From: Escherichia coli
Lineage (GTDB): Bacteria; Pseudomonadota; Gammaproteobacteria; Enterobacterales; Enterobacteriaceae
Length of the DNA stretch: 64,000 bases
Assembly: GCF_046105845.1 (NCBI RefSeq)
Contig: NZ_CP151004.1
Strand: one strand, 5' to 3'
Every line of letters starts with the position of its first letter. The stretch's first letter is position 1. A program made the translations under genes and the position numbers. The notes below the pieces were generated by a model. The model saw nothing but the letters and a program-made list of their open reading frames with translations, made no database searches and was not told the origin of the DNA. Below are positions 2,427 to 51,748 of the stretch, piece after piece.

Positions 2427-4577
2427 ATGGATACTAAAAAGATATTCAAGCACATACCCTGGGTGATTCTCGGAATCATCGGTGCATTCTGCCTCGCGGT
2501 AGTTGCATTACGTCGGGGGGAGCACGTCAGCGCCCTGTGGATCGTGGTCGCCTCTGTGTCGGTGTATCTGGTGGCGTATCGCTACTACAGTCTGTACATC
2601 GCCCAGAAGGTGATGAAACTCGACCCCACGCGCGCGACGCCTGCGGTTATTAACAACGACGGTCTGAACTATGTTCCGACTAACCGTTACGTGTTGTTTG
2701 GTCACCACTTCGCCGCTATCGCCGGTGCTGGTCCGCTGGTTGGTCCGGTTCTCGCCGCGCAGATGGGCTACCTGCCTGGCACGCTGTGGCTGCTGGCGGG
2801 GGTAGTGCTGGCCGGTGCGGTACAGGACTTTATGGTGCTGTTTATCTCCTCTCGCCGTAACGGCGCATCTCTCGGTGAGATGATCAAAGAAGAGATGGGA
2901 CCAGTACCGGGGACTATCGCGCTGTTTGGCTGTTTCTTAATCATGATCATCATCCTCGCCGTCCTGGCGCTGATTGTGGTTAAAGCCCTGGCCGAAAGTC
3001 CGTGGGGTGTCTTCACCGTTTGCTCAACCGTACCGATTGCGCTGTTTATGGGTATCTACATGCGCTTTATCCGTCCGGGGCGTGTGGGTGAAGTCTCTGT
3101 CATTGGTATCGTGCTGCTGGTTGCCTCTATCTACTTCGGTGGCGTGATTGCTCACGATCCGTACTGGGGTCCGGCACTGACCTTTAAAGACACCACCATT
3201 ACCTTCGCGCTGATTGGCTATGCGTTTGTTTCCGCACTGCTGCCGGTGTGGCTGATCCTCGCACCGCGCGACTATCTGGCAACCTTCCTGAAAATCGGCG
3301 TTATCGTCGGCCTGGCGCTGGGTATCGTGGTGCTGAACCCGGAACTGAAAATGCCTGCGATGACCCAGTACATTGACGGTACTGGCCCGCTGTGGAAAGG
3401 CGCTCTGTTCCCGTTCCTGTTCATCACCATCGCCTGTGGTGCGGTATCTGGCTTCCACGCGCTGATCTCTTCCGGTACGACGCCGAAACTGCTGGCTAAC
3501 GAAACCGACGCGCGTTTCATTGGCTACGGCGCAATGCTGATGGAGTCCTTCGTGGCGATTATGGCGCTGGTTGCTGCGTCCATCATCGAACCGGGTCTTT
3601 ACTTCGCGATGAACACCCCGCCTGCTGGCCTTGGCATCACCATGCCTAACCTGCATGAAATGGGTGGCGAGAACGCGCCGATCATCATGGCGCAGCTGAA
3701 AGACGTTACCGCACACGCGGCAGCGACCGTCAGCTCCTGGGGCTTCGTGATTTCGCCAGAGCAGATCCTGCAAACCGCGAAAGACATTGGTGAGCCTTCT
3801 GTCCTGAACCGTGCAGGTGGTGCGCCGACGCTGGCGGTAGGTATCGCTCACGTGTTCCACAAAGTGCTGCCGATGGCTGACATGGGCTTCTGGTATCACT
3901 TCGGTATTCTGTTCGAAGCCCTGTTCATCCTGACCGCGCTGGATGCGGGTACCCGTTCTGGCCGCTTTATGCTGCAAGACCTGCTGGGTAACTTCATCCC
4001 GTTCCTGAAAAAAACCGACTCTCTGGTTGCCGGTATCATCGGTACTGCGGGCTGTGTGGGTCTGTGGGGCTACCTGCTGTATCAGGGCGTGGTCGATCCG
4101 CTGGGCGGCGTTAAGAGTCTGTGGCCGCTGTTCGGTATTTCCAACCAGATGCTGGCAGCCGTAGCGCTGGTACTGGGCACCGTTGTGCTGATTAAGATGA
4201 AGCGCACCCAATACATCTGGGTAACTGTTGTTCCGGCTGTATGGCTGCTTATCTGCACCACCTGGGCGCTGGGTCTGAAACTGTTCAGCACCAACCCGCA
4301 GATGGAAGGCTTCTTCTACATGGCAAGCCAGTACAAAGAGAAGATTGCTAACGGTACTGACCTGACGGCGCAGCAGATTGCCAACATGAACCACATCGTT
4401 GTGAATAACTACACCAACGCAGGTCTGAGTATTCTGTTCCTGATCGTGGTGTACAGCATCATCTTCTACGGTTTCAAAACCTGGCTTGCGGTGCGTAACA
4501 GCGACAAACGTACTGACAAAGAAACACCGTACGTTCCAATCCCGGAAGGCGGCGTGAAGATCTCTTCGCACCACTAA
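2427..4577 (+). CDS. btsT: Pyruvate/H+ symporter BtsT (YjiY), CstA family transporter, 716 aa
   Basis: Translation MDTKKIFKHIPWVILGIIGAF... is a multi-TM CstA-family protein. Start set at the internal ATG (2427) matching the canonical N-terminus; the ORF track starts 15 nt upstream. Confidence 0.93.
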   Translation: MDTKKIFKHIPWVILGIIGAFCLAVVALRRGEHVSALWIVVASVSVYLVAYRYYSLYIAQKVMKLDPTRATPAVINNDGLNYVPTNRYVLFGHHFAAIAGAGPLVGPVLAAQMGYLPGTLWLLAGVVLAGAVQDFMVLFISSRRNGASLGEMIKEEMGPVPGTIALFGCFLIMIIILAVLALIVVKALAESPWGVFTVCSTVPIALFMGIYMRFIRPGRVGEVSVIGIVLLVASIYFGGVIAHDPYWGPALTFKDTTITFALIGYAFVSALLPVWLILAPRDYLATFLKIGVIVGLALGIVVLNPELKMPAMTQYIDGTGPLWKGALFPFLFITIACGAVSGFHALISSGTTPKLLANETDARFIGYGAMLMESFVAIMALVAASIIEPGLYFAMNTPPAGLGITMPNLHEMGGENAPIIMAQLKDVTAHAAATVSSWGFVISPEQILQTAKDIGEPSVLNRAGGAPTLAVGIAHVFHKVLPMADMGFWYHFGILFEALFILTALDAGTRSGRFMLQDLLGNFIPFLKKTDSLVAGIIGTAGCVGLWGYLLYQGVVDPLGGVKSLWPLFGISNQMLAAVALVLGTVVLIKMKRTQYIWVTVVPAVWLLICTTWALGLKLFSTNPQMEGFFYMASQYKEKIANGTDLTAQQIANMNHIVVNNYTNAGLSILFLIVVYSIIFYGFKTWLAVRNSDKRTDKETPYVPIPEGGVKISSHH

Positions 4578-13771: not shown

Positions 13772-13848
13772 AGCGCGGTGCGGATGTGCGCCAACACACC
13801 CGCACCGCTCATCACAATCACTATTCCAGGAGAATAGCAGTTATGACT
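13772..13848 (-). ncRNA. symR: Probable SymR antisense sRNA overlapping the symE 5' UTR, RBS and start codon (coordinates approximate)
   Basis: Placed from established knowledge of the symE/SymR arrangement (a ~77-nt cis-antisense RNA covering the symE translation initiation region). The inverted repeat GCGGTGCGG...CCGCACCGC at 13776..13809 lies within it. Exact ends are not determinable from sequence alone. Confidence 0.35.
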
Positions 13849-45463: not shown

Positions 45464-45480
45464 TTTCAGCAGGTAATTAA

Positions 45481-45510
45481 GGATACCCTTGTGCGAGGGT
45501 ATCCTTTCAG
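45481..45510 (+). terminator. Rho-independent terminator after the adhesin gene
   Basis: Hairpin GGATACCCT-TGTGCGA-GGGTATCC followed by TTTCAG. Confidence 0.5.
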
Positions 45511-45532
45511 ACTGATAACAAACGCTACATTA

Positions 45533-48744: not shown

Positions 48745-48808
48745 ACGGTTGTCAGCCGCCCGAATGGACGTAGAATGCCCGCAAGGGCGGCTGACAGAGT
48801 AAAACGTA

Positions 48809-49720
48809 ATGGATGACTGTGGTGCGGTTTTGCATAATATTGAAACAAAATGGCTTTATGATTTTCTGACCCTGGAAAAATGCCGCAACTTTTCCCAGGC
48901 GGCAGTCAGTCGCAACGTCTCGCAACCGGCATTCAGCCGCCGCATCCGTGCACTGGAACAGGCGATTGGCGTTGAATTGTTTAACCGCCAGGTGACGCCG
49001 CTGCAACTCTCGGAACAAGGGAAAATCTTTCATTCGCAGATCCGCCATCTGTTGCAACAGTTAGAAAGCAACCTGGCAGAGCTGCGTGGCGGCAGCGATT
49101 ACGCGCAACGTAAAATCAAGATTGCCGCTGCACACTCTCTTTCCCTCGGTCTGTTACCGTCCATTATCAGCCAGATGCCGCCGCTCTTTACTTGGGCGAT
49201 TGAAGCCATTGATGTCGATGAAGCGGTCGATAAACTGCGTGAAGGGCAAAGTGACTGTATTTTTTCCTTTCACGACGAAGATTTGCTGGAAGCACCGTTT
49301 GACCACATTCGCTTATTTGAATCTCAATTGTTCCCCGTCTGCGCCAGTGACGAACACGGAGAAGCACTGTTTAACCTCGCGCAGCCACACTTTCCGTTAC
49401 TGAATTACAGCCGCAACTCCTACATGGGGCGATTGATTAATCGCACCCTGACGCGCCACAGTGAGTTGAGTTTCAGCACCTTTTTTGTCTCTTCGATGAG
49501 CGAGCTTTTAAAGCAGGTTGCCCTCGACGGCTGTGGGATTGCCTGGCTGCCGGAGTACGCCATCCAACAAGAAATTCGCAGCGGGCAGCTCGTTGTACTG
49601 AATCGGGAAGAACTGGTGATCCCGATTCAGGCCTACGCATACCGGATGAATACCCGCATGAATCCAGTTGCCGAACGCTTCTGGCGTGAACTGCGCGAGC
49701 TGGAGATTGTGCTTAGCTGA
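48809..49720 (+). CDS. hypT: LysR-family hypochlorite-responsive transcriptional regulator HypT (YjiE), 303 aa
   Basis: N-terminal LysR HTH ([35 protein letters not shown]) followed by a substrate-binding domain. Confidence 0.9.
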
Positions 49721-50105
49721 CATTCTCCAGCGTCGCACTACGCCAACCGCCATTATCCCAGACCAGATCAAACGTTAGCGGTTCATCGTCGTGGTACAGC
49801 ATTATCTCAAGGCTGATAGCCAGCGTGTGGCTGTACGCTTCTTTCAAATTGACCTGCAACGCCGCAATCCGTGGCTCATGAAATAACAGTGCAGAACGCA
49901 GCTGACGGCAATACCAGCTCTGGAGATGTTTGTCGCTCTGGTTATGCACTTGCCACTCGGGCATGCCTGAAACAAGTAATGACGGTAATGCCGAATGAGG
50001 AGAATTAAAAAGAGTGAGGAGATCGCTGCATACCGATTTACGCAGCAATGACGTTTTATTGCCTGAAATTTCAGGTAAAACAGCCTGAAGTGATTGGCGC
50101 ATCAT
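49713..50105 (-). CDS. iraD: Anti-adaptor protein IraD (RpoS stabiliser), 130 aa
   Basis: [55 protein letters not shown]...; its 3' end overlaps the hypT 3' end by 8 bp (convergent). Confidence 0.85.
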
Positions 50106-50777
50106 TTTGCGCACTCCTGACGTTTAGCAACATATGCGGCTTGCCCTGAACACCGGGCACCACTGTATTGATGCTCATTTTCCATAGCCATTCCCTTTTG
50201 TTCATTACATCCATGTCAGTCTGAGACAGGCCTGAATCCTGTCAGCAAAGTATAAAACCTTACTTGCCTATGAATATCTACTGACTTTTCAGGAAAAAAG
50301 TCATGATTTGATAAAAATCATCAAACTCAAAAAAAAACCGCTAGTATATTCTGAATATTCCGAATAGTTACGTAGATGAAAATACTTGTCACCGCCGCTG
50401 CTTAATTCCGGTGGGAAATTATTTATTTCCGCATAATCAGCCATGTATTATTTGAAACAATTAGTTTGTAAATAATATAAATTGATAACATGTCAAATAC
50501 ATCAAAAATACCATTCACAGGCATTATTAATATAGACATCAATATAGCAACATCAAATTCCAATTAGTAATAAGATATGCTTTTAAATTGCATGCAAATA
50601 ATTTTAAATGAGCGTTTTTTGATACTTTATAGTGTTTCCTACCCTTTAATATCACTGTGTAGAGTTGATATCACTACAACAGAAACATGCATGTCATTTG
50701 TTTACTTCTCTTTTTACTACAGAAAAATTTATCTATTTTTCTAAACATCAGTGAAATACTCATAAAAGGTAACTATT

Positions 50778-51608: not shown

Positions 51609-51707
51609 CTACTGAGAAGAATGAGTACTCACGTTCAGGTTATACAGATAGTTAAACAATACCCTGCAATTTAGAAAGTAATACTCATTGCGACTTCTTA
51701 ATTTAAG

Positions 51708-51738
51708 AAAGCGCAAGGAATGTTTACCCTTGCGCTTA
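51708..51738. terminator. Bidirectional terminator hairpin between the convergent yjiC and uxuR genes
   Basis: GCGCAAGG-AATGTTTAC-CCTTGCGC flanked by A/T-rich sequence on both sides. Confidence 0.5.
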
Positions 51739-51748
51739 TCATAATAAG

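Follow-up and report, generated by a model that had tools for sequence, protein, structure and literature searches.

Convergent overlapping gene pairs have been counted in Escherichia coli K-12, where there are 75 of them (PMC4161906). Two real genes on opposite strands have a few 3′ bases in common, and the loss or movement of a stop codon extends one reading frame to the next in-frame stop within the neighbor. Two other described systems concern the ends of transcripts. Hairpins that lack a U tract and are located between convergent genes position termination in a collision model, which works best at highly expressed pairs (10.1101/2022.10.23.513370). The collisions of RNA polymerases at convergent pairs have been documented in E. 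coli, according to the accessible parts of two studies (10.1101/2022.10.23.513370; PMC10349824). RNAs terminated by Rho are trimmed back to stem-loops, as stated in the accessible part of Dar and Sorek 2018 (PMC6061677). The genomic site considered here has itself been described: the accessible text of Homeier et al. 2010 places GimA between yjiD (iraD) and yjiE (hypT) and distinguishes GimA-positive, remnant, and GimA-negative patterns (PMC2878320).

The hypT and iraD genes face each other in the window, which is the whole 64-kb stretch of E. coli chromosomal DNA that was analyzed. The genes and their overlap are:

48809–49720, plus strand: hypT (yjiE/qseD) coding sequence, 303 aa, LysR-type HOCl-responsive regulator; stop codon TGA at 49718–49720.
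49713–50105, minus strand: iraD (yjiD) coding sequence, 130 aa, RssB anti-adaptor with gp25/TssE fold; stop codon TAA, the reverse complement of TTA at 49713–49715.
50102–50185, minus strand: idlP, the iraD leader peptide open reading frame, translationally coupled to iraD (RefSeq annotation mapped via a constant offset; PMC5574718).
49713–49720, both strands: overlap of the hypT and iraD coding sequences, TTAGCTGA, 8 bp (sequence, list of open reading frames, and RefSeq).

The preliminary description had reported an 8-bp convergent overlap of the two 3′ ends at 49713–49720, and the sequence, the list of open reading frames, and RefSeq confirm it. The hypT gene ends with GTG CTT AGC TGA, and iraD ends, on the minus strand, with AAT GTC AGC TAA. 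The identical overlap is annotated in RefSeq for MG1655 (iraD 4556993..4557385, hypT 4557378..4558289), for the closest genome, NZ_CP100530, and for one K-12-like strain. Both genes are real and neither is a misprediction: IraD matches chain B of PDB 6OD1 and has a Pfam GPW_gp25 domain at residues 21–106, and HypT contains the Pfam domains HTH_1 and LysR_substrate, which reach up to residue 297. With 3′ bases in common and both genes real, hypT and iraD form a convergent overlapping gene pair. As judged from the domain boundaries, the overlapping codons belong to C-terminal tails beyond the conserved domains of both proteins, so the overlap probably costs little. The pair resembles the K-12 convergent overlaps in all of these respects, including the loss of a stop codon. 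It differs from them in that the change of stop codon coincides with the boundary of the GimA indel, and in that a long palindrome holds the overlap in its loop (PMC4161906).

The closest relatives of IraD outside Escherichia (52–54% identity) are tssE genes from two Citrobacter-like metagenome scaffolds (positions 4001–4372 of the loci), which sit in complete T6SS clusters composed of tssB, tssC, hcp, tssE, tssF, tssG, and clpV. By this resemblance, iraD looks like an orphan, repurposed tssE. In E. coli strain 9000, which is O157-like, hypT is annotated with 855 nt instead of 912 nt; the 3′ end and the 8-bp overlap are the same, and the N-terminus is apparently truncated. We take this short hypT to correspond to the truncated QseD reported for EHEC.

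The arrangement is widespread. A 1.6-kb query around the junction matches 5,395 of 5,426 complete E. coli genomes, and the junction itself is present in 4,880 of the 5,426, as defined by at least 80% coverage of a 71-nt or a 37-nt query. Approximately 247 genomes match the short junction queries only as far as 49724, and approximately 198 match only to the hypT stop codon and have a different hypT tail. The pair is the sole overlapping one among eight convergent pairs in the window. The overlap is genuine but ordinary: it is not statistically remarkable as such, and it is already present in the standard annotation of K-12. As one of dozens of similar pairs, it has little significance alone, and the incremental additions to it presented here are the origin of the junction, the altered protein tails, and the hairpin inside the coding sequence. 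The same 8-bp overlap was encountered in NZ_ABFU01000118.1, a 605-nt contig labeled Bacillus coahuilensis m4-4 that encodes the C-terminus of E. coli HypT with 100% identity and, with 97.7% identity, the complete iraD; the Bacillus assembly is almost certainly contaminated with E. coli DNA here.

The position of the junction relative to GimA is marked by four bases:

49721–49724, no strand assigned: CATT, the last bases in common with GimA-positive strains; the boundary of the indel is at 49724/49725 (sequence comparison).

The GimA-positive strain JA0266 is identical to the window through TGACATT, which ends at 49724, and then diverges. Its hypT gene is followed by nhaC(ibeT)-ibeA-dhaR...dhaKL and a ptsP-like gene, and only then by iraD. 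In the GimA-positive form, a hairpin, GCCGGATGGAGATTAATCCATCCGGC, is positioned directly after hypT. The GimA-positive IraD has 127 aa and the C-terminus WHRTMPQ, and its gene ends at a TAA of its own, which is followed by the hairpin AACGCGATACG...CGTATCGCGTT. Each gene of this form is thus accompanied by one hairpin that appears terminator-like. In the remnant form, found in E. coli 536 and Escherichia sp. E1V33, HypT ends with EIEPG, and a 372-bp ptsP-like fragment separates the genes. The separation of hypT and iraD amounts to ~20 kb in GimA-positive strains and ~0.4 kb in remnant strains. Compared with JA0266 and 536, the window conforms to the GimA-negative pattern, with iraD adjacent to hypT and no GimA-derived sequence between them. 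The flanking genes are the same as those of the published GimA-negative pattern, and complete genomes also yielded the GimA-positive and remnant patterns (PMC2878320). The accessible text of the same article does not describe the overlap, the altered C-termini of IraD and HypT, or the palindrome at the junction.

In an alignment in the iraD sense, K-12-type iraD has no stop codon where the GimA-positive allele has TAA. The last three codons of K-12-type iraD and its stop codon (AAT GTC AGC TAA, 49713–49724) are the antisense of the hypT stop region, and the K-12-type iraD tail AATGTCAGCTAA aligns as the reverse complement of hypT TTAGCTGACATT. By comparison of these alleles, the hypT/iraD junction is identified as the site of the GimA (ibeA) locus, and the 8-bp overlap as the GimA indel junction.

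Relatives of E. coli carry other versions of the locus. E1V33 retains the ptsP-like remnant of GimA. E. whittamii has an EPG scar at the end of HypT, an IraD allele that resembles the GimA-positive type, and a 21-bp overlap (hypT 2501..3412, iraD 3392..3805 of the locus), which was created independently; no notable hairpin is present at this overlapping junction. In E. albertii, iraD encodes 128 aa, has its own stop codon, resembles the GimA-positive allele, and directly faces iadA, and hypT is reduced to a remnant of ~40 nt and its upstream spacer (4387–4531 of the locus). The K-12-type junction also occurs in Escherichia sp. MOD1-EC7003, in which iraD is a remnant. In E. coli O111:H2 strain 12A, the hypT stop codon is mutated from TGA to AGA, HypT is 32 codons longer, and RefSeq annotates a 104-bp overlap of hypT and iraD (634–737 of the locus). 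The hypT orthologues of Salmonella and Citrobacter (81% identity) have a different convergent neighbor, which ends ~7 nt past the hypT stop codon, and no iraD beside them. The scan of genome contigs for homologues was not exhaustive, as the E. coli representative genome itself is absent from its matches.

The separated state of the two genes is probably the older one, because E1V33 has the remnant, E. whittamii the scar, and E. albertii the GimA-positive-like IraD. On the basis of these few lineages rather than of a complete phylogeny, we infer a deletion as the origin of the GimA-negative junction. The reversed polarity, in which GimA was inserted at CATT into an ancestral empty site with the 8-bp overlap, giving iraD a new stop codon and both genes new terminators, is considered unlikely. 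It draws on the presence of CATT at both ends of the GimA block in JA0266 (TGACATT/ATTCTGC and CCCGTCATT/TACTGC), which could be a 4-bp target duplication, but a repeat of four nucleotides may be due to chance and is weak evidence. The lower G+C content of GimA (46.2%) and the occurrence of the K-12-type junction in another lineage, MOD1-EC7003, are also in keeping with an insertion. However, the accessible text of Homeier et al. reports that GimA has no flanking direct repeats and that GimA-positive genomes lack mobility and insertion elements in and around it, and its authors consider GimA ancestral to phylogroup B2 and the evolution of the locus reductive (PMC2878320). The GimA remnants, scars, or GimA-positive-like IraD alleles of E1V33, E. 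whittamii, and E. albertii also speak against an insertion.

The second property of the junction is its potential to form a hairpin over both stop codons. The elements near the gene ends are:

49695–49736, either strand: imperfect palindrome, predicted to form a 16-pair hairpin on either strand (inverted-repeat search and folding).
49721–49798, plus strand: C-rich, G-poor tract after the hypT stop codon, candidate rut-like, within iraD antisense (C 35%, G 19%, C/G 1.8).
49591–49637, no strand assigned: hairpin with an 11-bp perfect stem (CTGAATCGGGA / TCCCGATTCAG) inside the hypT coding sequence (inverted-repeat search).

The core of the palindrome consists of arms at 49699–49710 and 49720–49731, which are complementary in 11 of 12 positions according to the inverted-repeat search. 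Four outer pairs connect 49695–49698 with 49733–49736, and the apical loop of 6 nt comprises 49713–49718. The iraD stop codon is inside the loop, and that of hypT straddles the loop and the inner stem. The predicted stability of the 33-nt core is −16.2 kcal/mol on the plus strand and −14.9 kcal/mol on the minus strand, and there are 16 comparable loci in the window, several of them at or near the convergent junctions iatD/kptA, yjiC/uxuR, and gntP/fimH. For 45 nt, the predicted values are −24.2 and −22.9 kcal/mol, respectively. Only three loci in the 64 kb are this stable on both strands, the other two being the symR region and the iadA-hypT spacer, and among 45-nt windows the junction hairpin belongs to the top 0.025% by two-strand stability. 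Given its predicted strength, its centering on the stop codons, and the comparable hairpins near convergent junctions, a coincidence of position is unlikely.

Three observations were made on other structures of the window. The hairpin in the iadA-hypT spacer (48750–48796; spacer length 64 nt) has an 11-bp stem (GTCAGCCGCCC...GGGCGGCTGAC) and encloses TTGTCA-16-TAGAAT, the one strong match to a promoter upstream of hypT. Its stem is conserved in E. albertii despite the mostly deleted hypT, and the hairpin could either terminate iadA transcription or occlude the promoter of hypT. The hairpin at 49591–49637 is positioned 75–120 nt downstream of the iraD stop codon on the minus strand, the surrounding fold of which has a z-score of −2.7; the repeat is specific to Escherichia, including GimA-positive strains, and is absent from the Salmonella and Citrobacter orthologues. 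The symR region contains the SymR antitoxin sRNA at 13772–13848 on the minus strand (Rfam match of 93.5 bits), and collinearity of the window with its best-matching strain is lost in this part, around hsd and symE.

The stem is not followed by a U tract on either strand: the plus strand continues with ACUACGCCAACC and the minus strand with AGUUCACGCC. The hairpin is G+C-rich, but since it lacks a U tract on both strands, it is not a canonical intrinsic terminator, and a scan with a terminator consensus found no site at the junction. The preliminary description had stated that no terminator intervenes between hypT and iraD. This stands insofar as the genes leave no space between them and the junction lacks a canonical intrinsic terminator, but it overlooks the strong hairpin that spans both stop codons. 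A hit of the scan on the plus strand inside iraD (49816–49834) was attributed to chance, as it is not conserved in O111:H2 or in the GimA-positive and remnant-type iraD alleles, and the hits in total are no more numerous than expected from shuffled sequence. No Rfam family was found at the junction at gathering thresholds or at E ≤ 1. The junction sequence is single-copy, with a median of one place per genome and at most two, and it was therefore rejected as a REP-like repeated palindromic element. The idea of a recombination site or another repeated element was abandoned for the same reason and because, according to the accessible text on GimA, this locus and its surroundings are free of mobility and insertion elements in GimA-positive genomes (PMC2878320). 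The canonical bidirectional terminators of yjiC/uxuR (51706–51740) and iatD/kptA (45473–45512) are similar to the junction hairpin in being G+C-rich palindromes of similar stability at or near a convergent junction. However, they have A-rich 5′ and T-rich 3′ flanks, whereas the hypT/iraD hairpin has neither and consists of coding sequence.

The 78-nt tract after the hypT stop codon has a C/G ratio in the top 5% of the window, and its composition is compatible with Rho-dependent termination. On the iraD side, the ratio is 0.9–1.3, and there is no C-rich tract. The succession of a stable stem-loop without a U tract and a C-rich, G-poor stretch on the hypT strand is similar to the Rho-dependent ends with a protective stem-loop in the accessible part of Dar and Sorek 2018 (PMC6061677). 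The locus departs from that type in that the iraD strand has no C-rich tract and the Rho table of Adams et al. 2021 is empty at these coordinates. In that table, no Rho termination region is given near MG1655 4,557,1xx–4,557,6xx, which may reflect low expression. The 3′-end supplements of the same study contain no entry for iraD, hypT, or yjiE and no coordinate near the junction.

The collision-type bidirectional terminators (Ju et al. 2019, as presented in the accessible part of Wang et al. 2022) have in common with hypT/iraD a non-canonical hairpin element at a convergent boundary. They are characterized by sharp, overlapping SEnd-seq 3′ ends and perform best at high expression, whereas the hypT/iraD element is known from sequence only, belongs to weakly expressed genes, and is located inside both coding sequences (10.1101/2022.10.23.513370). 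The junction hairpin is thus a candidate for either a collision-type bidirectional terminator or a Rho-associated protective stem-loop. Both hypT and iraD are weakly expressed. The transcript of a wild-type iraD′-′lacZ fusion was undetectable by Northern blotting in a csrA+ background, and iraD is known to be controlled from its 5′ end, by way of the promoters P1 and P2, CsrA, and idlP (PMC5574718). The accessible literature on iraD together with hypT or yjiE, including the CsrA/idlP paper, contains nothing on 3′ ends, and the study of transcriptional interference includes neither gene in its supplement. Transcription of both genes through their stop codons would necessarily yield RNAs with a complementary stretch of at least 8 nt.

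The 16 stem pairs were compared across eight distinct variants of the junction. Ten pairs are invariant, two are changed on one side only, and four are broken in some strains. No pair is changed on both sides, so compensatory changes are absent from the eight variants, the low diversity of which gives the comparison little power. In sampled strains, uncompensated synonymous mismatches disrupt central or outer pairs of the stem, at 49728 (C>A in one O157-like strain; C>G in O39:NM, ET915, F41, and O111:H2) and at 49699 (G>A in DG343-1). These mismatches argue against strong purifying selection on the hairpin, and the evidence for selection is weak. In MOD1-EC7003, the two changes in the right arm of the main stem still permit G-U pairs, although on the hypT strand alone, and the inner stem loses two pairs; the sample is too small for this to count. 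At the position of the arm, related iraD alleles carry GCCGGAAA, GCCGCAGT, or ACCGG-GA. A single arm change is specific to the K-12 type, a C>T that converts a wobble pair into a Watson-Crick pair. Directional evolution, with three K-12-type changes in the right arm each improving the pairing, was considered and dropped, as the addition of MOD1-EC7003, E. whittamii, and E. albertii left only this one specific change. The IraD tail is hypervariable between lineages. Of the distant hypT homologues in other genera, most have ordinary terminators, and the tight convergent junctions of the Salmonella and Citrobacter orthologues show a hairpin inconsistently.

The explanation that accounts best for these observations, and that we hold to be probable by a small measure, is an ordinary overlap at the boundary of the GimA deletion, with the hairpin as the only 3′-end structure and with Rho acting downstream. 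Upon deletion of the GimA block, iraD would have been left without its stop codon; it reads three codons through the antisense of the hypT stop region and ends 8 nt inside hypT. The joined tails form the imperfect palindrome of 16 pairs, the apex of which holds the two stop codons. Both ancestral terminator-like hairpins would be gone, and the hairpin at the junction would be the sole 3′ structure for either mRNA. It is a guess that the hairpin acts as a pause or roadblock element for the polymerase, or as a barrier to 3′ exonucleases. Rho would end the read-through from hypT in the C-rich tract just downstream, and the mature 3′ ends of both mRNAs would be complementary over about the length of the hairpin (~40 nt). 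Given the poor expression of both genes, hypT and iraD would interfere with each other weakly, if at all.

The main competing reading, a real possibility to which we nevertheless give less credence, treats the palindrome as a neutral by-product that has no function. Drifting, unconstrained tails would have become partly complementary by chance or via a quasi-palindrome template-switch mutation, and the transcripts would read into the partner gene and be ended diffusely by Rho and decay. The missing covariation and the uncompensated synonymous mismatches in several of the sampled strains fit this reading, as do the hypervariable IraD tail, the near-matching arms of related iraD alleles, from which a single C>T suffices, the hairpin-free overlap of E. 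whittamii, and the absence of a U tract. It does not readily explain why a structure in the top 0.025% for stability on both strands is located exactly on the stop codons, or why several comparably stable hairpins of the window occur at gene ends; the main-stem changes of MOD1-EC7003 also retain G-U pairing, although only on the hypT strand and with the loss of two inner pairs. A regulatory device along the lines of the interference suggested in the preliminary description, in which interference or antisense pairing couples the response to HOCl through HypT to the stabilization of RpoS through IraD, appears very improbable. The geometry does force complementarity of the RNAs over at least 8 nt and probably more, no canonical terminator is present, and polymerase collisions are known from E. 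coli convergent pairs. However, the two genes are not conserved as a neighboring pair: they are far apart or separated in GimA-positive and remnant strains, E. albertii has lost hypT, and in Salmonella and Citrobacter hypT has another convergent neighbor. Weak expression of both genes, their absence from the interference-study supplement and the Term-seq tables, and the 5′ location of the known iraD regulation (PMC5574718) also count against such a device. It would similarly come as a surprise if, after the loss of GimA and the flanking hairpins, selection had shaped the fused tails into a hairpin without a U tract that defines both 3′ ends and makes the expression of HypT and IraD mutually dependent.

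The hypT/iraD junction provides a clean natural case of a convergent overlap arising at the boundary of a large indel. Intermediates and alternative forms of the junction still segregate in Escherichia, comprising the GimA-positive and remnant forms and overlaps of 8, 21, and 104 bp. For comparisons of alleles, it is relevant that the C-termini of IraD and HypT differ between the pathotype-associated GimA patterns. In GimA-negative E. coli, neither gene has a canonical terminator, and the sole structure present is a hairpin that consists of coding sequence. With natural stem variants at hand, the locus is a convenient test case for models of bidirectional termination without a U tract.
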